Source: Shigella phage vB_Shi_2KOFFS. Taken from it: a stretch of 53,672 nt of DNA. Made by a program: the position numbers and the translations under genes. The DNA is taken from the sequence record PV615261. One strand, given 5' to 3'. The notes under the pieces were generated by a model. The model was given only the letters and a program-made list of their open reading frames with translations. It was not told where the DNA came from and made no database searches. Of this stretch, positions 1 through 53,672 are shown piece after piece (within the stretch, counting starts at the first letter, position 1; each line of letters begins with the position of its first letter).

Positions 1-236
1 TTACCAAGCCCAGCCCGTTCGCAGACAATTGTTAATATCTGCATAACGGCTCTGGGCTATTTTAATAGCCGCAACACTGGAGTCCTTATGGATTTTGATG
101 CACTTGATAACTTAGACTTCGGTGCTGCCGAAGAAGCAATTGAAGAACTTAAGAAGAAGCAGGACGAAGAAGCAATCGTTCCTGGTGCTGGCGATAACGA
201 CTGCTCAAGTGGTGCGTGCGCCATCTAAGGACGTAT

Positions 237-443
237 ATGTTTTCAGAGTGGGTAAATGACCCAGGAAGCTCTAAACAAGCATACTTGAAGTTTTCACTAA
301 ATCCAGACAAAACAGTTGGTCATGTATATAATGGTGATTGGGATTTCAAAGTTGTCGAATTCAAGCCACCATATATGAAGGTTATCGTACTTCACCCGCG
401 CAAAGAGTTTGAAGTGGAGTTTAACTATGTTAGACCAGCTTAA
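237..443 (+). CDS. hypothetical protein (68 aa)
   Basis: ORF with ATG at 237 preceded by AAGGA Shine-Dalgarno; no recognisable motif. Confidence 0.4.
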   Translation: MFSEWVNDPGSSKQAYLKFSLNPDKTVGHVYNGDWDFKVVEFKPPYMKVIVLHPRKEFEVEFNYVRPA

Positions 444-666
444 GTCAATCTTTCTTGGCGTCTTGACTGCATTGGGCATTCTCCTTGCAGTGTTCCTCAA
501 AGGCAAAAGCTCGGGCAAAGCCGAGGAGCGCCAGGAAGCCAAAGAGAAGCAATTCGATTCCATTAAAGAATCTATCGAGATTAAAACGCATGTTCAGAAA
601 GAAGTGTCTAGCAGTTCTGATAGCAATGTCGATAGTGAGTTGCTCTCAAAGTGGGTTCGTAAGTGA
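427..666 (+). CDS. small membrane protein, one predicted TM helix
   Basis: ATG 427 after GGAG; hydrophobic segment IFLGVLTALGILLAVFL followed by charged Ser-rich tail. Confidence 0.4.
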   Translation: MLDQLKSIFLGVLTALGILLAVFLKGKSSGKAEERQEAKEKQFDSIKESIEIKTHVQKEVSSSSDSNVDSELLSKWVRK

Positions 667-762
667 TTACTGCATGATTGCACAACCAATCTATTTGGAT
701 GTTGCAGAAGTGAAAGTTTTATCACGCGAAACCAAAACACAGATTTTAGTCCACAATGAAAC

Positions 763-1233
763 GTGGGCACAAAAGTGTTCGAAACAATGAAACTATCAAA
801 GCAGTATATTTACGACAGAGTTTCTAAACGTCAGGAACCTACTTGGCAAGTAGACACAGATGGGTATTTATCTGCTTCGATTACTTTGCCGGAAGGCACC
901 TTCAACGTAAGAAAACATATTCTTGTGTTCTACAAAACGAACGGATACATTCCAGATTTTGTAGACCATAAAGATAACAACAAATTAAACAATGCTCCGG
1001 ACAACTTGCGAGAAGCAAGCAAATGCCAGAACCAGCAGAACTCCAAGAAGCCAAAGAATAACTCCTCTGGCGTGAAGGGAGTGTCACGAACCAAACATGG
1101 CAAGTGGCAAGTTAATGTTATGGCATTTGGTGTGAAGCATTATGGTGGATTGTTTGACTCTCTAGAAGATGCCAAGCAACACGTAGAATCATTGCGAATG
1201 AAGTTGCATCGTGACTTTGCTCGTAGTGTGTAG
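763..1233 (+). CDS. HNH homing endonuclease with AP2-type DNA-binding domain
   Basis: HNH motif VDHKDNNKLNNAPDNLR and AP2-like block SSGVKGVSRTKHGKWQV...HYGGLF; start uncertain (GTG 763 or ATG 787). Confidence 0.8.
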   Translation: MGTKVFETMKLSKQYIYDRVSKRQEPTWQVDTDGYLSASITLPEGTFNVRKHILVFYKTNGYIPDFVDHKDNNKLNNAPDNLREASKCQNQQNSKKPKNNSSGVKGVSRTKHGKWQVNVMAFGVKHYGGLFDSLEDAKQHVESLRMKLHRDFARSV

Positions 1234-2377
1234 ATTTACTTACCCGACAGTGAGTGAACAAGACGGACGTCTATAACTTCCCACATGGCCTAGCTAGTTG
1301 GTGGTGTAAAAGACTGACCAAGGTGACGACAGCCAAACAAATGCTCGCCATCGCATTTCATTTGGCAGTCCGGTACGGGACTTTAAATACACGTATATCA
1401 TAGTCGAGGGAGTGCGCGACTTTAAATAACGAGACTCTAGCCACTTGTGGTATGGCAGGTGTAATTCCTGCAAGTTGCTCTGGGCATAACAATTAAATTG
1501 CTGCCTCCTAGGATTGGAACGTCCCGCTACACATCGTTAGTGTGAGAAGGTTAGTCCACCGAGACAAAGGCTTGCGGCTTGACTCCAGCCAAAGAAGAAA
1601 ACGGCGTGCTTGAGAACGAAGCTCCGATGACTCCGTAAAGTCAACGTAATGAACACGAGACGTTCAGGTGGATACTTCCTAAAACAGTGTCCGAGAACAC
1701 CCCTCGCCAAAGTGCTTGAGAACGTTAGCTCTGTCTTGCCAGCATTAATGGCACGTTGGCCGCGTAAAGGCCACAGCGTCTGACCAACGTATCGGTCACC
1801 AAATTCAATGGATTCGTAGAGTTAATTAAACCTGCACGATGGGATAGGGATGAAGCATCCGAGGCCGACTGTGTAATTGCTGGCTTACTATAAACCAGCC
1901 GAATCCACCAATCGGGAGAAAGTGCTGTGGACGATATTGTATCGTAGGTGGTCGCATTCCACCCTCCCAACTTCTACCAAACAGTTATGCCTCTGTTCAA
2001 AAGGCTCAAGAGAGCGTCTGGCATACCGTAGCGATACGGCTTAGTTGCGCTGATTGTGTTGTGCAGAAAGAAAGTTCAGGCTTTCGTTTGGGTTACTCCT
2101 CATCCCGAAGTTAGCTGGATTCAAAATCCAGACTATGTTCCTATACACATGAAATATGCAAGTCGAGGGTTCTTAATGTTCAAACATGATGCGAGCATTA
2201 AGCGGGTTTATACTTTTCCCCGATGGTCCCCATAAACAAGGCTGATTCACTTGGGCGGTTCGAATCAAATTTAATAAGTGTCTTGGCCGCAGTGGAAACA
2301 TCATCTAAGCCAATGTATTGTAATGTTCGTAATAGTCCACGTCAGGACACTTACTTAAATTTTAACTGGAGAGAAAC

Positions 2378-2608
2378 ATGAAAACTGCTGAAATTGCCGA
2401 AGAGATTTATAAGGCCGTAATAGCCAACCAAATCACAAGTGAAGTCCTGCACATGGATATTGAAGAAGTTCGCAATGCCTTTGGTGGTTTTGCAATCTTG
2501 TCAATAGAAGCTGCGGAAGCACTGACAAACACGTACAATCAACGCGAATATGAAAAGCGTTCTGTACTAAATGCGTCGCTAAAAGAAATTCAGGCGTCAT
2601 TAAAATAA
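2378..2608 (+). CDS. hypothetical protein (76 aa)
   Basis: ATG 2378 preceded by GGAGAG; no motif recognised. Confidence 0.5.
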   Translation: MKTAEIAEEIYKAVIANQITSEVLHMDIEEVRNAFGGFAILSIEAAEALTNTYNQREYEKRSVLNASLKEIQASLK

Positions 2609-2664
2609 TACCATTATCATGGTGCGGAGCTAATTTATCTCCCACCATATGAACCGGAGAGCAA

Positions 2665-3315
2665 ATGATTACTGCCACATTGGTCGACCACATGGGTAGC
2701 GACCTCACAACTGTTAATGCTGCACGAGCTTCTTATGGTGCAGAGTCACACGAAATGACTTTACGTGACGAGAAGCTGATTGAGTTTCTTGCAAAGCATA
2801 AGCACAATACACCTTTTGCCCATGCGTATGTGACATTACGCTGCACTGCGCCAATCTTTGTTGCACGCCAACTGGGCAAGCACCAGGTGGGCTTTCGTTG
2901 GAACGAAGTTAGCCGTCGTTACAAAGATGGCGAAGCAATCGAAATTGAATGCTTTGTACCTGATGTGATGTTTGGTCGTCCTGAAAAGTTGATGACTCAG
3001 ACTGCACAACCATTGCCACAAGATTTTGCTGACGATATTCACTATCGCATGGAAATCCACAACAAGGCTTGCATTGCAGAGTATGAAACGTTAATTGGTT
3101 TGGGGATTGCTCCAGAGCAAGCCCGAATGGTGTTGCCACAATCCATGATGACTACATGGATTTGGACTGGCTCTTTACTGGGCTGGGCTAATATGTACAA
3201 GCAACGCTCTACAGAGCACGCCCAATATGAGGCACGTTTGTTTGCAAAAGAAGTCAATAAAATTATGTCAGAGTTGTTTCCTGTTTGCTGGGAGGCACTC
3301 ATTAAACAGGAATAA
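2665..3315 (+). CDS. thyX: ThyX-family (flavin-dependent thymidylate synthase-like) protein
   Basis: Translation ARQLGKHQVGFRWNEVSRRY aligns to the ThyX RHR-x7-S region but reads KHQ instead of RHR; good RBS; position in nucleotide-metabolism block. Confidence 0.6.
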   Translation: MITATLVDHMGSDLTTVNAARASYGAESHEMTLRDEKLIEFLAKHKHNTPFAHAYVTLRCTAPIFVARQLGKHQVGFRWNEVSRRYKDGEAIEIECFVPDVMFGRPEKLMTQTAQPLPQDFADDIHYRMEIHNKACIAEYETLIGLGIAPEQARMVLPQSMMTTWIWTGSLLGWANMYKQRSTEHAQYEARLFAKEVNKIMSELFPVCWEALIKQE

Positions 3316-5082
3316 ATGATGAACGTTAAGCAATGTGTGGCTAAGATTAAGCACGATGTACCAGACTGTAAATCCACATCTGGCAAGTCTTTACAGGTTT
3401 GGTTGAATGTCGATGAAGCTGGTAATAAGAATTTTTCTGGTTACTGTTTTGCATGTGGCGTTCTAGTACCAAATCCTTACGGAAATAATCCGGAGAACAT
3501 TCCAGAGATTAAAGTCAAAACTCCAGAAGAAATTCAGGAAGAAGTTGATGAAATCACTGCTTGTCCTCCGTTTGATTTAACCCATCGCAGCATTGAGCCA
3601 GAATTTTGGAAAGCTGCTGGTGTTCGACTTCTATATTCAGAGTATGATGGAAAGACTCCAAATGCTCTGGCACATGGCTACACCAAAAATGGTAAACTTG
3701 TTCGTTGGAAGATTAAACTTCTGAACAAGAAAGTTATGTGGTCAGTTGGCGACACTCAGGGTAACGACCCTTACAACTGGATGGCTGCAAAAGCAATTGG
3801 CGGTAAGACACTGTTCATCACAGAAGGTGAAGAAGACTGTATCGCATTGCGTCAAATCCTCAAAACTATGAACCGTGGTGGTGCATATGAAGATTTGGAT
3901 TTTGCTGTAATTAGTTTGAGCGACGGAAGTGATTCCGTACACAAATGTTTGTCACCAGTTGCAGAAGAAATTAAGCAACGTTGGGAGCAGGTTGTTATCG
4001 TATTTGATGATGACGAACCTGGACGTAAAGCTGCAAAAGAAGCGTGCCGATTGTTGCCTGGTGCAATGATTGCAACACTTCCAGCTAACGATGCCAACGA
4101 TTGTTTGAAGCGTGGCTTGCTCAAAGCTACTCAATCTGCTGTTGTGTTCCGTGCTGCTCGTCCTCTGCCTACAGCACTTGTCAACAAAGAACTTCTTATG
4201 GAAGAGCTTGATGACGAGGTTGAACAGGGTGTGGATTATCCTTGGCCCAAATTAACCGACTTAATGTTTGGTCAACGTCGAGCCGAAGTTATTACAATCG
4301 GTGGTGCAGAAGGTGGTGGTAAAACTACACTGTCCCGTCAGATTGTGCATCACAACATTACCAAGCACGATTGGGGAGTGTTTACTGCATACATGGAGGA
4401 AACTCCTACAGAAACACTGCGCCGTATGGCTGGCCTTAATGACAACTTGCCATATTGGGAACCCGCGTTCACTCGTGAAGACCCTCGATATGATGAAGCT
4501 AAGTTCCGTCAAACTGCTGCGAAGATGCTTCGTAACATGGAGATTTGGGACCGCAAGCAAGCTGGAGAAGACCCTTATGAAACCTGGGATGGGTTAAAGA
4601 CGATTCTTCGTCAGATTGGACCAGACATTGATATGTTTGTCCTTGATAACTTAACCTACTTATCGGAAGGGATTTCTGCCTCAGAGAAGAACGACTTCTT
4701 AGGTAAGCTGTATGCAGATATTACTAAGCTGGCAGACCAATATCAGTTCCATGTAAATATCTTGTCGCACCTTAACCCTGTGGCAAAAGGTCAACGACCT
4801 CATGAGGATGGTGGACGTATCAAGAAGTCAGACTTTACTGGCTCACGTGCTGCTGCTAAATATTCTCATGGTATGTTTGGCTTTGAGCGTAATAGCCAGG
4901 CAGTTGACCCAAACTGTTCTATCATTCGTTCCATTAAGGCTCGTAAGAGTGGTAAAACAGAAGGCTTCAAGACGTACTATGACACCGAATCCGGTCGAAT
5001 CATTCAACGTTCTTGGGATGACTCGCTGTTCGAAACCAAAGAGATTGTTCAACTCACTAAGAAGAACGGTCCACACCAATAA
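3316..5082 (+). CDS. bifunctional DNA primase-helicase (TOPRIM plus RecA/DnaB-like ATPase)
   Basis: N-terminal Cys cluster; TOPRIM motifs FITEGEEDCIAL and VVIVFDDDEPGRKAA; Walker A ITIGGAEGGGKTT; 588 aa. Confidence 0.85.
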   Translation: MMNVKQCVAKIKHDVPDCKSTSGKSLQVWLNVDEAGNKNFSGYCFACGVLVPNPYGNNPENIPEIKVKTPEEIQEEVDEITACPPFDLTHRSIEPEFWKAAGVRLLYSEYDGKTPNALAHGYTKNGKLVRWKIKLLNKKVMWSVGDTQGNDPYNWMAAKAIGGKTLFITEGEEDCIALRQILKTMNRGGAYEDLDFAVISLSDGSDSVHKCLSPVAEEIKQRWEQVVIVFDDDEPGRKAAKEACRLLPGAMIATLPANDANDCLKRGLLKATQSAVVFRAARPLPTALVNKELLMEELDDEVEQGVDYPWPKLTDLMFGQRRAEVITIGGAEGGGKTTLSRQIVHHNITKHDWGVFTAYMEETPTETLRRMAGLNDNLPYWEPAFTREDPRYDEAKFRQTAAKMLRNMEIWDRKQAGEDPYETWDGLKTILRQIGPDIDMFVLDNLTYLSEGISASEKNDFLGKLYADITKLADQYQFHVNILSHLNPVAKGQRPHEDGGRIKKSDFTGSRAAAKYSHGMFGFERNSQAVDPNCSIIRSIKARKSGKTEGFKTYYDTESGRIIQRSWDDSLFETKEIVQLTKKNGPHQ

Positions 5083-5143
5083 CAGAGTTGCTGCGCTGCA
5101 TGGTTCGCCCACCAGCGCGGCCCTCACTTTACAATAGTTGGAA

Positions 5144-5527
5144 ATGATGAAAATTTGTTCTAAGTGCAAAGTACCTCAAGATGAAGCAAACTTTCACAAG
5201 AGTTCATCTTGGTGTAAGCTTTGCAAGAAATTGAAGTATCGCGCAGAGTACAAATCTGCACCATTACCAGAGAAGCCTGTTCGTAATATTGAACGAGAGC
5301 GGGAACTAAATAAGGCAAGGTCTAAGAAACATGCAGAGTTAAATCCTAAGAAGCGTGCTGCCAGAGTCGCGGTACGTGGGATGATTCCTCCTGCACGTTG
5401 TATGGGGTGTTGCCAAGATAAGAAACTTGAAGCACATCACGACGACTACAATAAGCCAAAGGTTGTTCGTTGGCTTTGCAAAGAATGTCACACCCTGTGG
5501 CATATGAATAATACACCTATTGAATAG
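5144..5527 (+). CDS. HNH endonuclease (zinc-ribbon plus HNH)
   Basis: CSKCKV...CKLCKK zinc ribbon and C-terminal EAHHDDYNKPKVVRWLCKECHTLWH; paralogue of 46603..46995. Confidence 0.7.
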   Translation: MMKICSKCKVPQDEANFHKSSSWCKLCKKLKYRAEYKSAPLPEKPVRNIERERELNKARSKKHAELNPKKRAARVAVRGMIPPARCMGCCQDKKLEAHHDDYNKPKVVRWLCKECHTLWHMNNTPIE

Positions 5528-5540
5528 TTCGGAGCCTGAA

Positions 5541-7466
5541 ATGTTGTATCCTTACTCCAATATGTATGCTATGGATATTGAAACCACTGGCTTACTGGAC
5601 CAAATGAAGAAGCAAGAAGCACCGCGCTTGCACAACATGGGAATCATTGATGTTGTTTCTCGTGAAGAGAAGTGGACCGACAGAAAGTCTATCCAGGCAT
5701 TTCTGGATACAGGCCCAACATTAATCATGCACAACGGCGCAACCTTTGACTTTGAAGCACTGAGGTTCCTTGGCTACGACGTTTCAAAATGTACCTTAAT
5801 TGATACTTTGTTTATCAGTTGGTATCTGCAACCTCGTCGTGTTAAGCACGGCTTAGAAGGTTACGGCGAAGAGTTTGGTGTGCCAAAACCAGTCATTGAT
5901 GATTGGGAAAATCAAACTCAAGAAGAATACAACCATCGTGTGATGGAAGACTGCAAGATTCAGTTGAAGCTGTGGGAACAGCAATACATTCAACTCTTGA
6001 AGATTTATAAATCTCCTAGCGAAGTTAAGCGCTTCATTGAATACCTGATGACAAAAGCTCGTCAACAGGTTATTCAACAACGTACTCGCTGGAAGCTGAA
6101 CATTGAGAAGGCATTGGCATTTAAGGCCAAGCTGGAGCCAATGATTAAAGAGAAGACGGACGCATTGGAAGCATCAATGCCACGTATTCCAGAATATGTT
6201 ATCAAAACCCGTCCAGCTAAATGCCACAAGTTGAACGGACAATTATCTTCCGCTGGCATCAAGTGGAAAGCTATTTGTGATGCAAACGGTTTGGACTGGA
6301 AAGACCCAGACCTGGCTATCAAGGTTCTTAAAGGTTATAAGAATCCTAACGCTGGTTCTCATGTGCAAATTAAAGACTGGTTGTTCAGCTTAGGTTGGGA
6401 ACCGGAAACCTTTAAGTTTGACCGTAACAAGGAAACAGGTGAAACTCGCCAGATTCCACAAATCACTGTGAAGGATGAAGATGGCAATCCTGAAATATGT
6501 CCGAGCTTGCATAAGCTGGCGGAAAGAAACCCCGACTCTGGTATTCAACATCTTATTGGGATGGGCGTGTATAAACACCGTCTGTCTGTTGTTAATGGCT
6601 TCCTTCGCGACGTCGATGAAGATGGGTTCCTTACTGCACGATGCGGTGGCCTTACCAATACTTTACGCCTTAAACATCGCGAACTTGTTAACCTCCCTTC
6701 TATTCGTGTATTTGGCGGTGAAGAACTGCGTTCAATGTTGGAAGCGTGGCGCGAAGACTACGAACAGCTAGGCTCTGACTTGTGTTCTCTGGAAGACCGT
6801 TGTAAACACCACTTCCAGTGGATGTATGACCCTGAATACGTTAAGAAGCAGTTGGCACCAGACTATGATGCTCACCTTGCAATCGGCGTAATTGGTGGAT
6901 TTATTACTGAACAAGAGTCTCAGGACCACAAGGACGGAATTAAGAAGTGTAAACAACGTCCAATGTTTAAGACTACAAACTATGCTTGTCAGTATGGTGC
7001 TGGTGTGCCGACTGTAGCTCGTTCTGCTGGCTGTGACCAGACTACTGCTGCACGACTGCATAAAGCATATTGGGACTTGAACTGGTCTATTAAAGAGATT
7101 GCTGCAAACACCAAAGTTATCACAGTCGACGGTCAGATGTGGCAACAGAATCCAGTAAACAAATTCTGGTATTCATTGCGTACAGAGAAAGACCGCTTCT
7201 CCACATTGTGTCAGGGTACTGGTGCATATGTGTTTGATGTTTGGTGTAACAACATCATTGCAATTTGTAATGAACGTTGGGGCTGTGACCCACTTCTGTC
7301 CGGGCAATTCCACGATGAATTGATTCTCCAAGTTAAGAAAGGTTTCCGCGATTTGTGGACGGACTTGCTTAATGAGGCAATGGACCGAACCAACAAAGAA
7401 CTTAAACTTAACCGCGATTGTGCATGTGATGTACAGTTCGGTGATAACTACGCGGAGATTCACTAA
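5541..7466 (+). CDS. family A DNA polymerase with 3'-5' exonuclease domain
   Basis: Exo motifs MDIETTGL and HNGATFDFEAL; pol motif B KQRPMFKTTNYACQYGAG; motif C QFHDELIL; ATG 5541 after GGAG. Confidence 0.85.
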   Translation: MLYPYSNMYAMDIETTGLLDQMKKQEAPRLHNMGIIDVVSREEKWTDRKSIQAFLDTGPTLIMHNGATFDFEALRFLGYDVSKCTLIDTLFISWYLQPRRVKHGLEGYGEEFGVPKPVIDDWENQTQEEYNHRVMEDCKIQLKLWEQQYIQLLKIYKSPSEVKRFIEYLMTKARQQVIQQRTRWKLNIEKALAFKAKLEPMIKEKTDALEASMPRIPEYVIKTRPAKCHKLNGQLSSAGIKWKAICDANGLDWKDPDLAIKVLKGYKNPNAGSHVQIKDWLFSLGWEPETFKFDRNKETGETRQIPQITVKDEDGNPEICPSLHKLAERNPDSGIQHLIGMGVYKHRLSVVNGFLRDVDEDGFLTARCGGLTNTLRLKHRELVNLPSIRVFGGEELRSMLEAWREDYEQLGSDLCSLEDRCKHHFQWMYDPEYVKKQLAPDYDAHLAIGVIGGFITEQESQDHKDGIKKCKQRPMFKTTNYACQYGAGVPTVARSAGCDQTTAARLHKAYWDLNWSIKEIAANTKVITVDGQMWQQNPVNKFWYSLRTEKDRFSTLCQGTGAYVFDVWCNNIIAICNERWGCDPLLSGQFHDELILQVKKGFRDLWTDLLNEAMDRTNKELKLNRDCACDVQFGDNYAEIH

Positions 7467-17709: not shown

Positions 17710-18002
17710 CGCCACCCCCAGCCCCTACAGTATCTGCTGTAGCTGGAGTTGTAACGGTTGATGCGTCTTCTACTGATGCCACTGTAACTGTAGACAAGCT
17801 GTTCAAGTTTGAGAACTCTACAGCAACAGATTATAACTTCGCTGTTACACCTCCTGTGACTGGTGTTTCTGTGGCGGCAAACGGCACTGTGACTGTCTTG
17901 AATGAGACGACCACAGAGACTTCTGCTACAATTAAGGCAACAAACAAAACAACCTCTAGCGTAACTGCGACCAAAGAAATTACCATTACGCCGAAGGCTT
18001 AA
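17236..18002 (+). CDS. -1 frameshift fusion product: decoration-like protein plus C-terminal Ig-like domain
   Basis: After slipping at 17697-17703 the -1 frame reads AVTPPPAPTVSAVAGVVTVDASSTDATVTVDKLFKFENSTATDYNFAVTPPVTGVSVAANGTVTVLNETTTETSATIKATNKTTSSVTATKEITITPKA, ending TAA 18000-18002. Confidence 0.55.
17697..17703 (+). promoter_or_regulatory. -1 programmed ribosomal frameshift slippery heptamer C CCA AAG
   Basis: X XXY YYZ heptamer in the 0 frame, 3 nt before the TAA stop of 17236..17709; the -1 frame is open for 99 codons downstream. Confidence 0.6.
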
Positions 18003-18024
18003 GTTGCAATGGCGCAATTAATGG

Positions 18025-38870: not shown

Positions 38871-39015
38871 CGATTATATGCGAGAAGAGATTCGATGCGT
38901 TAGCATCGTTTCTCTTTGAGCTAGAATAAAACAAGTAAATTAAATATTTATTTATTCCCAATATTGCTACAATATTAAGAGTAATATTAGGAATGCGTAA
39001 AGTTAAAACCAAATG

Positions 39016-39050
39016 GTACATGGTCGGTCAACTGTACCTGCTTCAATCTT
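39016..39050 (+). repeat. 35-40 nt intergenic repeat element, copy 1
   Basis: GTACATGGTCGGTCAACTGTACCTGCTTCAATCTT; second copy at 42611-42650. Confidence 0.6.
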
Positions 39051-39419
39051 CGTTCACGGTCGGTCAGCTGTATCTCGCCGAAATTTGTTCGAACAGTTGT
39101 CTGACTATGAAATAATTTTTTTTTTATAATTTTTTTTTATTCTTAATATTGTTACAGAATTAATGAGACTAAAATTCGTAACAAAGCTACGAGACTCGAC
39201 TTGTTACAATATTAATGAGACTCGAATTGTGGCAATATTAATTTTTTATTTTTAGGGGCCGGGGAGCAGAAGCCCAACGTCCTATCGGACTTAAATACGG
39301 TCCCTACTCCAACTTTTTCCTACAGCCTATCGGCTTTCAAACAACACCAAGTTAGGCGCTTCGCTTATAAGTCAAGGTCAAAGGCAATCAGAGTACGCTG
39401 TTGTAATGTGCTAATCTCA

Positions 39420-39436
39420 CCATTAGTTGGTTGTGA
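39420..39436 (+). promoter_or_regulatory. conserved promoter-like motif (CATTAGTTGG family), upstream of RNA polymerase gene
   Basis: cCATTAGTTGGtTGTGA; one of at least 9 copies of consensus ACATTAGTTGGATGTGAA. Confidence 0.45.
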
Positions 39437-41843: not shown

Positions 41844-41893
41844 TTCCCAATATTCAGACAATATTGCTGCATGTAATATTGTCTCGATATTCG

Positions 41894-41911
41894 ACATTAG
41901 TTGGATGTGAA
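41894..41911 (+). promoter_or_regulatory. conserved promoter-like motif copy
   Basis: ACATTAGTTGGATGTGAA exact consensus; no ORF follows for about 1.1 kb. Confidence 0.45.
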
Positions 41912-42610
41912 GTAAAAGAATACGGAGAAATATTACTCACGTTGTTCGTGGGTTTCCGCATGTCATGTTGAATCATTCTAGAAACATTCAGCATGTCAGC
42001 TTTGAGTTACAGTGTTGTAATGATGTGGCAATCATTGAACTCCCTAGGTAGGCCACCTACAGTTCCAGCAACCATGACTTAGAGTAGGAATATCTATCCG
42101 AAACTTGTACTTCACCTATAGCATGTTCAATTGCGACAATATTGCTCCATCTCCTATTATAAAGGCCCACCCACAAGCCGGGAGATAACTTTGGTAATAT
42201 TGGAACTTTTGGACATGCTTCTTTCTTTCAATCAGAATTCGAAAGAAGAGAAGAGTCGGAGCAAAGCCTCTCGTTTTCACGCAGAAGCCGCCCCGATTTT
42301 GAGCAACAAATATTGTGACAATTTTGTCGCAGTATGGCATGTAAATATTGCTACAAATTGGCATGTTAGAATGTGGCAGAATTGTTAGAGGACTAATCAC
42401 CTCGAAGATACAATCGTCTACCAATCTGGCATGTTAATTTTGTAACAGTATTTGTGCCAATTTCGCATGTAATAGCTGTATCAGTAATGACCCAATATTC
42501 TTGCAACCCGCATGAATACTGGCTTCCAGCCAAGCGAAGGCTTTATCATCGCATGTAATATTGTGACAATATTGGGATAAAACCCTTTATTTAATTTGTT
42601 TTATTATGCT

Positions 42611-42650
42611 GTACATGGTCGGTTTTCCGTACCTGCTTGCTCCAATCTTA
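42611..42650 (+). repeat. 35-40 nt intergenic repeat element, copy 2
   Basis: GTACATGGTCGGTTTTCCGTACCTGCTTGCTCCAATCTTA; matches 39016-39050. Confidence 0.6.
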
Positions 42651-42765
42651 ATGTGCCAAATACGTTAAGTATGGGAGTAAACCTGTAATTAATGGTGCAT
42701 GTTTAATTGTGACAAAATTCGTCTATTTGGCAGATGAATTAGTTGCAATTAAGCATGTTCATTTA

Positions 42766-42783
42766 TCATTAGTTGCATGTGAA
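42766..42783 (+). promoter_or_regulatory. conserved promoter-like motif copy
   Basis: tCATTAGTTGcATGTGAA. Confidence 0.45.
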
Positions 42784-43076
42784 TAAGACCAAATCTCTGT
42801 AAATTCTGCTGAAATTGTGTGACAGATTTTAGAGAGATTATGTCTCCAAGCTAATCATTGTAGTTTTTAGACACTTTGTGTGTCACATATATAGCCTGTG
42901 AAAAACGTGTGGTTTATTGCCGGATTGCAACGCGCCCACCAGACTAGGAAGTCCCTGATGGCGGCACACACAGGAATACTATATAACTCCCTACAACTTT
43001 AAGGTGGATTGAGGTAAGACAAGACCTCCACAATCGTTCTGTAGGGAGTTCTTTTAACTTAGGAGAATAAGCAGAA

Positions 43077-50258: not shown

Positions 50259-50380
50259 TCTGACCTCTTAGGGAAGAACTGCATTATACATCTATCGCCA
50301 AATGGGTGTCAAGCACTTTCTTAATTTATTTTATTTATTCTTATTATTCGTGCGGTTTGGAATAATGGAATAATTCTGAA

Positions 50381-50398
50381 ACATTAATTGGAATTGAC
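50381..50398 (+). promoter_or_regulatory. conserved promoter-like motif copy
   Basis: ACATTAaTTGGAaTTGAc, preceded by TTCTGAAACATTA as at 52345; 10 nt upstream of the structured element. Confidence 0.4.
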
Positions 50399-50408
50399 AA
50401 CATCAGAT

Positions 50409-50486
50409 AAGAGCTTTGTAACTAGGTAGTCCGTCTGGTACCAAGACGTGTGAGAACGTTCGATTCGTTCTACAAAGCTCTTTTCG
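50409..50486 (+). ncRNA. candidate small structured RNA with tRNA-like T-arm and acceptor-like stem, ending in a U-tract
   Basis: 12-bp closing stem 50409-50420/50471-50482; internal hairpins 50432-50448 (5-bp stem, 7-nt loop) and 50454-50470 GAACG-TTCGATT-CGTTC (canonical T-arm shape); no D-arm; followed by CTTTTC. Confidence 0.35.
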
Positions 50487-51031
50487 ATGGAATGTTTCCA
50501 TCATATACATTTATCTTTTAACATAGGCCAAAAGGCCGGAATACTTATTCGCAGAAAAGCTATTCACTTGTTATAGGCGATGTATTGGGATGAATTGGAA
50601 CTAAATAAGCAAGCTGTTAGGGCTGAATAATTAGAGGGTTATGCCTCATGCTTATGTTAGTCGTTCGAAAATAGGTTTGTGCCACAAGCTGCTGGTGCTC
50701 TGAGGAAGTCGGACAAACAGGGCTTAGAGTGGCATAATCCTCACAAAACCGCGCCACCAGCTATGCCAAAGCAGGTAGGTTGGGTGAATGTATTGGGAAG
50801 GGTTACAAAGCCTCTGTGACCTCCGTAGCTTGCCAGGCTGCGGTGCAGTTATGATACGCAGGTCGCACCCTAACGGGAGTAACCCTTCGCCAATGCAGTC
50901 ATCCAGAATTGACACAAACGGTAGGCAGTGGCCCGATTTTCGGCCTTCCTGCGCTGCCCTGTGGCCTGTTTCATGGGCCAAAAGATGAGAAGAGAAGTCA
51001 CAAACACTGAATCGAAAATTGGAGAGTTCCT

Positions 51032-52344: not shown

Positions 52345-52362
52345 ACATTAGTTGGATGTGGA
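52345..52362 (+). promoter_or_regulatory. conserved promoter-like motif copy
   Basis: ACATTAGTTGGATGTGgA, 77 nt upstream of 52439. Confidence 0.45.
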
Positions 52363-52438: not shown

Positions 52439-52777
52439 ATGGCTAAGATTGTAACCGTAACTCAGTACGAAGCTAACGATGGTTCCCTGTTCCTGACCGA
52501 AGCAGAGTGTAATGCACATGACTTCAAACTGGAAAACGGTGCTAAAATTGAGAAAGCTGCCGAAGCGTACCTGAACACCGTTGGCGCTATCGACCGTTCT
52601 CGCTCCATGCAGAAGAACACCATCGAGCAGTTCCTGGCATTCTACCTGCCGTGGGTTGAAGCTGGTGAGCCGGAAGTTGAGCGTACTAAGTTCGATACTC
52701 CGAAAGAAGCTAAAGTTGCTGATGCAGCTGTTTCCGAAGCTGCCGAAGCTGCTGTTGAAGAAGCTCCGGTATTCTAA
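52439..52777 (+). CDS. small acidic protein with highly optimised codon usage (112 aa)
   Basis: ATG after AAGGT; net charge about -11; codon usage like the capsid genes; flanked by promoter-like motif and downstream hairpin. Confidence 0.6.
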   Translation: MAKIVTVTQYEANDGSLFLTEAECNAHDFKLENGAKIEKAAEAYLNTVGAIDRSRSMQKNTIEQFLAFYLPWVEAGEPEVERTKFDTPKEAKVADAAVSEAAEAAVEEAPVF

Positions 52778-53672
52778 GTTGCCGATGGCAAACTTGAGAG
52801 ACTAGGCTAAATCGATCTGGCGTGCACTGGAAGTTTTCCGGTGCTGCCTTGAACCCATTCCAGAGTGAGTGGGCTTCAATGAGCATTCTTGTGATTAGAG
52901 TTGGGAGGTAGGCCGATGCCCAAGCTCATGGCCCAGACAAGAGTGTTCATTGAAGTAGTTTTCTGAGTCTTACGACGGGCCTAAACTGCCTGGAGTTATT
53001 GCGACTGTTTTATTCATTTAAAATAAATGCAAATGATTCTGAAATGCGAGTTGCGGCTTAATTAAATTTAAGTCCTCTCCGTGGTCTTCCAATCCCACGT
53101 AACCAAATTTGGCGCATTGTGGCTTCGAGATGTGATTAATAAATCGGAGCATTAATTAATTTGTATTCTGCGATGCAAAGCAGGCTTAAGTCCTCCAGTG
53201 CGCGTGGGGATGTGACAGAGTACAAACTTAATTATGCAGTTGGATATTTCTAGAGGACGGACGAGCACACTGGAATGTCTTCAATTGGTTTAGTGTGAGA
53301 AGCTATGCCAATTTGAAACGTAACTCCTTGAGGAAGTGCTCCTCTGGACTTCCCTCCACACAGGAATCTCAAGCCTGTGGCAGCGACTTCGAAGCTGCAC
53401 TGCGTAACCTAATTCACCCTAAAGTGAGTTGCCCTGAGCATGGAAATAAACTGCTCATAACCGATGGTATCTACAAAGGTAGATTAAATCAGGTTGCCTG
53501 TTGGTACTTGGGTTCAACACCTGCTTGCACTCGCAAAGTAGTGCCTCGTACCTGAGATGAAGTGAGTCGGGACCATCAATCCCACGTTATGTCAAAACAC
53601 AGTAGGCGACTCACAGATTCTACAAGCCTCGCAGTTCGGGAAAACCTGCGTTATCAAAACCCCCCCCCCACC

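Follow-up and report, generated by a model that had tools for sequence, protein, structure and literature searches.

Two ornate phage RNAs, GOLLD and ROOL, are the closest described counterparts of the element analysed here. GOLLD, a Rfam family since Weinberg et al. (2009) that has been studied by cryo-electron microscopy (PMC12286853), is encoded by phages near transfer RNA (tRNA) islands and combines a conserved 3' domain with a variable 5' domain, sometimes with tRNAs in the linker (PMC12286853). ROOL, a Rfam family of Weinberg et al. 2017 (PMC5737381), received a nanocage structure in 2025. The two have been known since 2009-2017, with structures in 2025, and their function is still unknown. 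We studied a region of Shigella phage vB_Shi_2KOFFS (sequence record PV615261), the whole 53,672-nucleotide stretch of which is called the window below. The region, 1234-2377, is flanked by the spanin genes on one side and by a small gene, thyX and primase/helicase on the other. An earlier inspection of the letters (the sequence-only reading) had described it as devoid of coding capacity and had proposed a large structured RNA, a mobile intron or homing-endonuclease remnant, or a replication/packaging cis element. Our comparison among phages indicates that positions ~1256-2267 are a modular non-coding RNA island on the + strand, whose predicted ~287-nt core is universal and always comes last.

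The window was assigned to the Chaseviridae, genus Carltongylesvirus (phiEcoM-GJ1-like coliphages; 90-98% identity by megablast and blastn), and carries all its genes on the + strand. An unannotated gap of ~1 kb lies at the same position in SKA49, GJ1, Faunus (Faunusvirus), PP101 and PM1 (Suwonvirus), Fifi44 and Y2 (Loessnervirus) and Aeromonas phage phiA050, and syntenic gaps of similar size occur in at least five related genera. Alignment with related phages, a check proposed with the sequence-only reading, showed the region to be present and conserved at the same position. The first alignment revealed a strongly conserved block (~1975-2270) with visible compensatory changes, in which pairwise identity between lineages goes down to 42-65%. 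We looked for further relatives by pattern scans of IMG/VR, metagenomes and GTDB genomes, and vetted the matches by nhmmer and a covariance model. These scans added L012, L018, L027, L036, L047, L048, L057, L073 and L096. The matches from the metagenome and genome scans (72 and 14) were mostly due to chance, the true homologues being L036, L047, L048, L057, L073, L087 and L096. The covariance model R1, which contains the nested helices, hand-assigned from segmented sequences, and was built on the five closest sequences, recovers the core at full length in all 18 non-redundant loci (18/18; 36-397 bits). R1 did not find it in three Nefertitivirinae phages or in the chance matches of the metagenome and genome scans, nor was the core found in 5,426 complete E. 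coli genomes; the predicted RNA is confined to Cleopatravirinae-like phages. Because position and sequence are kept across genera and base pairs covary, the region is not random.

By this comparison, the core is a double-pseudoknotted RNA of ~287 nt (1981-2267), with a predicted H-type pseudoknot at each end. Its layout comprises two long-range helices, at least seven hairpins and invariant loops (CUCCUCA, UGAAAUAUGCAAG), distributed as follows:

1981-2006, + strand: pseudoknot PK1, with helix H1 (1981-1984/1993-1996), helix H2 (1988-1992/2002-2006) and an A-rich loop 3, UCAAAA.
2021-2159, + strand: central domain of the core, with P_a, P_b, Hp1-Hp4 and the invariant junction.
2021-2025 with 2155-2159, + strand: long-range helix P_a, GCAUA/UAUGC, which becomes GUAUA/UAUAC in four phages.
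2026-2039, + strand: hairpin Hp1, with the GNRA loop GCGA.
2055-2058 with 2146-2149, + strand: long-range helix P_b, UGUG/CACA, which becomes UGGG/CCCA in PM1.
2070-2085, + strand: hairpin Hp2.
2087-2109, + strand: hairpin Hp3, with the invariant loop CUCCUCA.
2112-2135, + strand: hairpin Hp4, variable.
2150-2162, + strand: invariant junction UGAAAUAUGCAAG.
2167-2231, + strand: 3' three-way junction of the core, with GGG 2167-2169 / CCC 2229-2231 (tentative), P-alpha and P-beta.
2172-2202, + strand: hairpin P-alpha, in which 7/7 pairs are compensatory.
2203-2222, + strand: hairpin P-beta, CGGG/CCCG varying to CAGG/CCUG.
2237-2267, + strand: pseudoknot PK2, the 3' end of the conserved RNA, with P-gamma (2237-2240/2250-2253) and the loop GAUUC (2244-2248) pairing with GAAUC (2262-2266).

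The GGG/CCC closing helix is called tentative because it varies by G·U only. Hp4 contains the second of two hairpins picked out by the sequence-only reading: the hairpin is real (CUGGAUU-CAAA-AUCCAG) and lies at 2115-2131, 1-2 nt from where it had been placed. One more helix, P_d (2013-2016 with 2048-2051), was dropped as uninformative; it is compatible with the sequences yet invariant.

The evidence for this structure is covariation. In alignment A5, which was fitted with the model, 97.7% of 859 cells pair and 35/56 pairs are compensatory, against 30-47% and 7-13 in slid controls. Since A5 is biased towards the proposed structure, we recounted the 5' half of the core on a structure-blind MAFFT alignment (A3), where 98% of the cells pair (25-56% in slid controls) and 11 pairs are compensatory (0-3 in the controls). 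Helix H1 of PK1 is 100% paired with 3/4 pairs compensatory, H2 is 91% paired with three compensatory pairs, and Hp1, Hp2, Hp3 and Hp4 have 3-6 compensatory pairs each. The per-sequence search identified PK2 in 17/17 sequences and in six versions: UGAUUC/GAAUCA, AGUCC/GGACU, UUGGAA/UUCCAA, GUAUAUU/AAUAUAC, GGUC/GACC and UGAUUCC/GGAAUCA. Its columns are 89% paired even with misalignment, and the pseudoknot helices reach 92% against 30-52% in slid controls. Cells with G·U outnumber those with A·C by 49 to 2, which identifies the + strand as the selected one, as for the genes. Automated approaches were less productive. RNAalifold on a 17-sequence MAFFT alignment gave eight pairs only, because the variable hairpins are misaligned, hence our use of manual helices and a covariance model; a naive all-against-all helix scan was flooded by G/U-rich false helices. 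In summary, the large structured RNA put forward at the outset is supported by the covariation, the pseudoknots and the strand-specific G·U pairs.

Immediately 5' of the core lie two elements resembling tRNAs:

1809-1911, + strand: tRNA-like domain TLS-1, with an 8-bp acceptor stem (UGGAUUCG/CGAAUCCA) and a 3' ACCAA.
1914-1971, + strand: TLS-2, a degenerate mini-tRNA-like element recognised by inspection, with a GGGAG...CUCCC acceptor, an ACGAUA-UUG-UAUCGU arm and a T-arm-like GGUGG-UCGCAUU-CCACC.

In TLS-1, the D-like segment (UAGAGUUAAUUAAACC) is unpaired, the variable arm is long and the T-like arm reads GCUGG/CCAGC. In alignment A8 (seven phages), its acceptor stem is 100% paired, with compensatory changes at two positions, and the whole domain is 93% paired against 21-43% in slid controls. 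The T-like arm covaries and the ACCAA tail is invariant. An acceptor stem of 7-8 bp thus stands on a T-like arm and is followed by a single-stranded NCCA 3' end. The domain lacks the canonical T-loop (UUCRANY), D-arm and 7-nt anticodon loop; its T-like loops are of 5-11 nt and its third arm varies in length. In the window, neither ARAGORN at default thresholds nor the Rfam model RF00005 at E<=10 calls a tRNA, and ARAGORN at 55-70% thresholds gives nothing but inconsistent calls. TLS-1 lies upstream of the conserved block U2 (described below) in Y2 and uvigL027, and between module U4 and the core in the window. Since TLS-1 and one of the 5' hairpins, hairpin F, change place between genera, the 5' modules are best seen as independent folding units. 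TLS-2 stops 10 nt short of the core, and a tRNA or tRNA-like 3' end with CCA lies 10-15 nt 5' of the core in Fifi44, Y2, uvigL027, phiA050 and the window. At the position of TLS-2 there is a real tRNA in Fifi44 (L007 2665-2734), Y2 (L014 2474-2542) and uvigL027, and a 63-nt mini-tRNA ending in CCACCA in phiA050. PM1 and uvigL018 have a tRNA-Cys somewhat further upstream of the core.

These observations could also be read as the non-functional remains of a former tRNA cluster, a decaying tRNA or transfer-messenger RNA (tmRNA) gene island. The tRNA-like fragments and real tRNAs dispersed in the gaps of relatives, the gain, loss and reshuffling of modules, and the loss in the window phage of a tRNA that its relatives carry upstream all agree with such decay. 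It would not explain the more than 50 base pairs held by compensatory changes across genera that are 42-65% identical here, nor the invariant single-stranded loops, which point to purifying selection, and the core has no tRNA-like fold. We therefore regard decay as very improbable.

The remainder of the island, 1256-1804, is a mosaic across genera, as revealed by a tile scan. It contains the following elements:

1288-1327, + strand: module U0, with a hairpin UUGGU-(14 nt)-ACCAA at 1298-1321.
1402-1437, + strand: block U2, an AGUCG-(10 nt)-CGACU hairpin followed by UUUAAAUAACGAGACUC.
1440-1451, + strand: hairpin A, with tetraloop CUUG, 100% paired and 3/4 pairs compensatory (alignment A7).
1455-1471, + strand: hairpin B, GCAGG-UGUAAUU-CCUGC, 3/4 pairs compensatory (A7).
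1473-1512, + strand: hairpin F, with a conserved 12-nt loop CUCUGGGCAUAA followed by UUGCUGCCUCC.
1495-1650, + strand: lineage-specific insertion with the first copy of GUGCUUGAGAACG (1606-1618).
1651-1724, + strand: module U4, made of hairpins C, E and D and the conserved GUGCUUGAGAACG (1712-1724).
1651-1665, + strand: hairpin C of U4.
1670-1692, + strand: hairpin E of U4, with the invariant loop UUCCUAAAACA.
1692-1706, + strand: hairpin D of U4, with the loop AACANNC.
1731-1804, + strand: three-way junction, closed by CUGU...ACAG and including two hairpins whose loops are of 7 nt, from sequence inspection.
Within 1731-1804, + strand: its terminal hairpin UGACC-AACGUAU-CGGUCA, followed by CCAAAU, also from inspection.

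Within the 5' part, primary sequence is best conserved in U2, which is present in all genera except PM1/PP101 and 4HA13 and has a helix 95.6% paired and nearly invariant. Hairpins A and B are 94% paired in the structure-blind MAFFT alignment A7, against 26-42% in slid controls. Hairpin B is the other hairpin of the sequence-only reading, which had its pairing right and its start wrong by 1-2 nt. Both direct repeats of that reading exist as well: GACTTTAAATA at 1379 and 1418, accounted for by a partial copy of U2 at 1373-1389, and GTGCTTGAGAACG at 1606 and 1712, each 1 nt from the positions first given (1607 and 1711). Hairpin F is kept in DE15, GJ1, Faunus, uvigL018 and 4HA13, upstream of U2 in Faunus and uvigL018; the covariation of its stem was assessed by eye only. 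The insertion 1495-1650 is missing from GJ1, DE15 and Mangalitsa, the tile scan finding 1514-1634 in SKA49 and 4HA13 only. Module U4 is present in 14 phages and, like U2, in the majority of genera. A table of regular-expression matches, together with inspection, gives several versions of its hairpins: GAAC/GUUC, GAAG/CUUC and CAAG/CUUG for C; CGAG/CUCG, AGAG/CUCU and UGAG/CUCA for D; GGAUAC/GUGUCC, GUCAC/GUGGC, GCC/GGC and GUC/GAC for E. Some rows of the table for C and D were mis-registered and were corrected by eye. The UGACC hairpin has a counterpart, GCCC-ACGUUAC-GGGC, in phiA050, uvigL012, mgL047, 4HA13 and uvigL018, and 1754-1954 is found in part of the genus only. The stem of U0 covaries by eye (UUGGU/ACCAA, AUGGU/ACCAU, ACGGU/ACCGU).

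The 40-nt block of U0 is 90-92% identical (blastn) to the T4-like Serratia phages PS2, SP1 and 4S. In PS2 (L122), it lies at 1501-1539 within an unannotated gap of 540 nt, directly 5' of a tRNA-Gly. The same gap has a tRNA-like element at 1770-1845 (GGACCAAC...GGUUUGACUCCUGAUUGGUCCACCA), similar to an element that follows the core in contig L012. The recurrence of the U0 block and of a tRNA-like element in a Serratia phage gap suggests that tRNA-associated RNA modules are mobile between unrelated phages. Within the island, there is a 16-nt direct repeat, 81% identical, between the start of U2 (1395-1410, AUAUCAUAGUCGAGGG) and the invariant junction of the core (2154-2169, AUAUGCAAGUCGAGGG), and the loop of hairpin F, CUCUGGGCAUAA (1477-1490), resembles GUCUGGCAUAC in the core (2016-2026). 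These likenesses may reflect a common binding motif or an ancient internal duplication. Two other roles for U2 were considered and rejected. As a reiterated phage promoter, it would be expected elsewhere; it has a single copy in the genome at up to three mismatches, and the promoter consensus of GJ1 differs. As a second tmRNA-like tag, its frames differ between genera, ending in K or at an immediate stop.

The coding content of the region is low. The claim that it has no + strand open reading frame (ORF) of at least 60 codons holds, the longest being of 59 amino acids (aa):

1254-1403, + strand: ORF of 49 aa.
1649-1783, + strand: ORF of 44 aa.
1877-2044, + strand: ORF of 55 aa.
2056-2235, + strand: ORF of 59 aa.
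2223-2381, + strand: ORF of 52 aa.

A length of 1.1 kb without a 60-codon ORF is not improbable by chance; when the threshold is set to 50 aa, 1234-1876 ranks with the largest + strand gaps of the genome that have no ORF. The 59-aa ORF in the core is interrupted in close relatives, and no reading frame is kept. A frameshifted, unrecognised protein gene or a remnant of a mobile intron or homing endonuclease might be suspected in view of the HNH homing endonuclease gene that adjoins the region, and of the small hypothetical proteins that some database records annotate inside it. Yet phages that have no HNH gene (SKA49, GJ1, Faunus, PP101) carry an intact RNA region, both flanking genes are complete, no intron covariance model matches (group I and II included, at E<=10), and the ORFs are unconserved even in close relatives. 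Frameshift correction yields no protein gene, and only 1234-1255 is related to the HNH cassette. We give this explanation, in either form, hardly any credence.

The upstream ORF (763-1233) had been described as an HNH-AP2 endonuclease; its HNH part is supported by Pfam (HNH_3, E 3e-13), and its AP2 part has no match at E<=0.01. The cassette has left a trace in front of the island:

1234-1255, + strand: relic of the 3' end of the o-spanin gene (ATTTACTTACCCGACAGTGA...), outside the RNA, moved from its place when the HNH cassette inserted.

SKA49 has no HNH gene; its spanin ORF is closed by ...AAG TGT TCG AAA CTT ACC CGA CAG TGA, and the same motif comes after the spanin gene in Faunus, phiA050 and Fifi44. 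Because the same bases terminate the o-spanin ORF in SKA49, the cassette must have inserted into the 3' end of that gene, leaving a displaced copy. Between 763 and 1255 of the window, the spanin ORF now ends in ...KCSKQ*, and its original end, ACTTACCCGACAGTGA (...LTRQ*), survives displaced at 1238-1253. The cassette is absent from SKA49, GJ1 and others. A candidate regulatory motif, ACTTACCCGACA, was ruled out, being the end of the spanin ORF.

How might the island be expressed? The GJ1 record has eight annotated putative phage promoters with the consensus ACATTAGTTGGATGTGA. The window has ten + strand matches to this GJ1-type consensus, and the gap contains none of them; in this circularly permuted genome, the closest upstream match is at 52345 and the closest downstream match at 5131. 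A search of 600-2800 yielded neither a sigma-70-like + strand promoter nor an intrinsic terminator. Since the island has no recognisable promoter or terminator of its own, it is most simply part of a long transcript of the phage polymerase. We propose that the T7-like RNA polymerase of the phage would transcribe it from the predicted promoter at 52345 into the thyX-primase-polymerase genes. The tRNA-processing nucleases of the host would then take over: RNase P would cleave at the 5' side of the tRNA-like modules, and RNase E and 3' trimming would act after the encoded CCA, so that cleavage at this tRNA and tRNA-like punctuation would free the core. Recognition of the tRNA-like modules by RNase P is an assumption, as their D and T loops are not canonical and neither ARAGORN nor Rfam calls them. 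The terminal pseudoknots would stabilise the released core, which would work in trans, as an ornate scaffold RNA resembling GOLLD and ROOL. We consider that the chances lean slightly towards this reading, in which a stable ornate non-coding RNA is cut from a long phage transcript at tRNA-like punctuation and acts in trans.

The same transcript could instead carry the structured RNA as a cis-acting leader, a riboswitch-like 5' untranslated region that controls the translation, stability or processing of the replication operon to which it belongs (small gene, thyX, primase/helicase, DNA polymerase). The thyX-primase module always follows the core on the same strand, with no terminator between them, and C/U-rich loops (CUCCUCA, UUCCUAAAACA) could, by inspection, sequester Shine-Dalgarno sequences. 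What follows the core is the next element:

2268-2377, + strand: spacer and 5' leader of the next gene (the 76-aa ORF 2378-2608), poorly conserved across genera and partly deleted in SKA49.

PK2 closes the structure 60-140 nt ahead of the next start codon, and the spacer after it is the part that is neither conserved nor, in SKA49, complete. The first gene downstream varies between genera; no homologue of the 76-aa ORF was detected outside Carltongylesvirus. Moreover, ~290 nt plus ~700 nt of modules is far above the size of known leaders, and uvigL012 has another tRNA-like module 3' of the core. A cis-acting leader is on these grounds unlikely.

The neighbourhood of replication genes brings to mind a replication origin, with a structured primer transcript or extruded hairpins of single-stranded DNA. 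The primary origin of T7-like phages uses RNA-polymerase transcripts, the region is directly upstream of replication genes, and single-stranded DNA also tolerates G·T pairs. We found no iterons, tandem repeats or AT-rich unwinding block in it, no inflection of the cumulative GC skew and no phage promoter in the gap, and pseudoknots, a GNRA tetraloop and tRNA-like domains with an encoded CCA are features of RNA. The replication/packaging element of the sequence-only reading thus has no positive evidence, selection being on single-stranded + strand RNA, and we hold an origin to be quite improbable, more so than a leader.

Several points weigh against a processed, trans-acting RNA. A discrete, processed RNA in the Chaseviridae is a prediction from sequence comparison, which includes about six independent lineages in all. 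The highest covariation figures come from A5, whose fitting presupposed the structure. Shuffled sequences fold with an energy as good as that of the core (z = -0.32), and this z-score is uninformative on either strand. R1 leaves unaligned the central domain of four Loessnervirus-type sequences, which was fitted by eye only (P_b UUAAUA/UAUUAA; the CUCCUCA hairpin as GCCAG/CUGGC versus GCUGG/CCAGC). No canonical D or T loop is present in the tRNA-like modules, which escape ARAGORN and Rfam. The conservation of U2 allows for a promoter or a protein-binding site, which would alter the transcript model.

A second non-coding gap, ~1.9 kb upstream of the island (window 52780-53294, + strand), holds a permuted tmRNA-like candidate. 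Sub-threshold Rfam matches to RF04321 and RF01849 (permuted, alpha-proteobacterial tmRNA) occur at the same position in five phages. ARAGORN finds no tmRNA in the window at default thresholds and calls a permuted one at 52771-53152 at 70% of the default. The tag frame, 53029-53061, reads GCA AAU GAU UCU GAA AUG CGA GUU GCG GCU UAA (ANDSEMRVAA*) and is kept in eleven relatives across genera, with synonymous changes or as ANDSEMRMVA, ANDSEIRVAA or ANDNEMRAAA. Given the model matches, the conserved tag and the ARAGORN call, these phages appear to encode a divergent, probably two-piece tmRNA, a gene that is unannotated in the database records examined.

Our guess is that the core would have the translation apparatus as its target, because of the companion tRNAs, the tRNA mimics and the tmRNA-like gene, and because the invariant C/U-rich loops resemble an anti-Shine-Dalgarno sequence. 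A bolder proposal, which we make tentatively and regard as doubtful, is that the core, with or without the 5' modules, belongs to a class of giant ornate phage RNA not described before, a functional analogue of GOLLD and ROOL that forms an RNA particle or docks on ribosomes and works with the tRNA mimics and the permuted tmRNA-like gene as a toolkit reprogramming host translation or ribosome rescue. The function of GOLLD and ROOL is unsolved partly because their hosts are awkward to work with. Here, an RNA of comparable complexity would be found in lytic phages for which laboratory E. coli, Yersinia, Erwinia and Pectobacterium serve as plating hosts; several of these phages are under development for biocontrol. 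If true, this would provide a genetically tractable lytic E. coli system for asking what giant ornate RNAs do, with a phage that is easily engineered and open to knock-outs, trans complementation, pull-downs and cryo-electron microscopy, and the tmRNA-like gene and the island would point to a wider RNA-based strategy aimed at translation.

Some observations concern other parts of the window and of the databases. Further + strand stretches without an ORF of at least 50 aa are 38920-39426, 41844-42130, 42389-43076, 50325-50787, 17710-18024 and 23209-23376. Several overlap matches to the GJ1-type promoter consensus (39420, 41633, 41894, 42766, 50241, 50381), and these stretches are probably an early regulatory region. 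The end of the window (53652-53672) reads AAAACCCCCCCCCCACC, a C10 homopolymer that may be an artefact of assembly or terminus. By megablast, 48 records of 'Stx2a-converting' phages and two of Stx1 phages share a segment with window 1-6000; none of these matches is to the RNA island itself. The record PP952070.1 ('Staphylococcus phage Pel53', host Staphylococcus hyicus) is 83% identical to these coliphages in the RNA island and 98% in the primase, and its host label looks doubtful. The 21-nt pattern TGAAATATRCAAGN{2,3}AGGGTT recurs in a single fen metagenome (sample Ga0194135; loci L032-L103), where over 30 contigs carry it, and on three contigs (L110, L112, L116) of the Ignavibacteriae metagenome-assembled genome fen_1276. 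None of these loci fits the core model, and they are probably an unrelated repeat element of that organism.

An Infernal scan against Rfam, another check suggested for the region, matched no family to it. There was no match at gathering score in the window or in eight relatives, and permissive searches gave none at E<=10 in 1100-2500 or at E<=5 in five relatives; the families without a match include GOLLD, ROOL, group I and II introns, tmRNA, RNase P and riboswitches. The island RNA is absent from Rfam, parts of it are labelled as hypothetical proteins in some records, and we found no mention of the gap in the genome papers on these phages that were examined. The core would be an RNA outside the described families, a fragment of which might figure among the 10,006 unnamed phage RNA candidates of a 2023 catalogue (PMC10690425).

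How does the island compare with known systems? Like GOLLD, it would be a very large phage RNA, adjacent to tRNAs, with a conserved 3' domain rich in pseudoknots and a less conserved 5' domain. In layout only, its architecture is of the GOLLD type, with a core in 18/18 loci, mosaic 5' modules, and tRNAs or tRNA-like modules in the linker. In contrast to GOLLD, it does not resemble the GOLLD model of Rfam, to which no match appears even at E<=10, its hosts are Enterobacterales and Aeromonas, and the myovirus that carries it is strictly lytic and has a T7-like RNA polymerase of its own. With ROOL it shares the character of an ornate multi-pseudoknot RNA of phages or prophages, often by tRNA islands, with no protein partner or function known. 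However, the Rfam ROOL model is unmatched, the secondary structure is another one, and the core is smaller (~290 nt). Since it does not match their covariance models, it is not a member of GOLLD or ROOL, two RNAs that form homo-oligomeric nanocages. The likeness to tmRNA (SsrA, including the permuted two-piece form) lies in the pseudoknots and in a tRNA-like domain with an acceptor stem, a reduced D region and an encoded CCA. Yet the island has no conserved tag frame (the frames in U2 differ between genera) and no matches to tmRNA models, and TLS-1 is closed upon itself, not assembled from the two ends of a long RNA.

Processing at tRNA punctuation has precedents. Species 1 and 2 of T4 (rnaC, rnaD) are stable RNAs of the T4 tRNA cluster that are co-transcribed with the tRNAs and freed by the host tRNA-processing enzymes; with ~120-140 nt, they are much simpler than the present RNA. 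The likeness, drawn from their description, is that the 40-nt U0 module adjoins a tRNA-Gly in T4-like Serratia phages. Spacers of tRNA precursors can act as small RNAs, for example 3'ETS-leuZ in E. coli. In MALAT1/mascRNA, a tRNA-like structure recruits RNase P or enzymes of tRNA 3' processing and sets the end of the adjacent long non-coding RNA, which is protected by tertiary structure. The phage island differs in that its tRNA-like elements are 5' of the core rather than 3' and in that its processing is inferred, and resembles MALAT1 in that the terminal pseudoknots of the core would serve as end protection.

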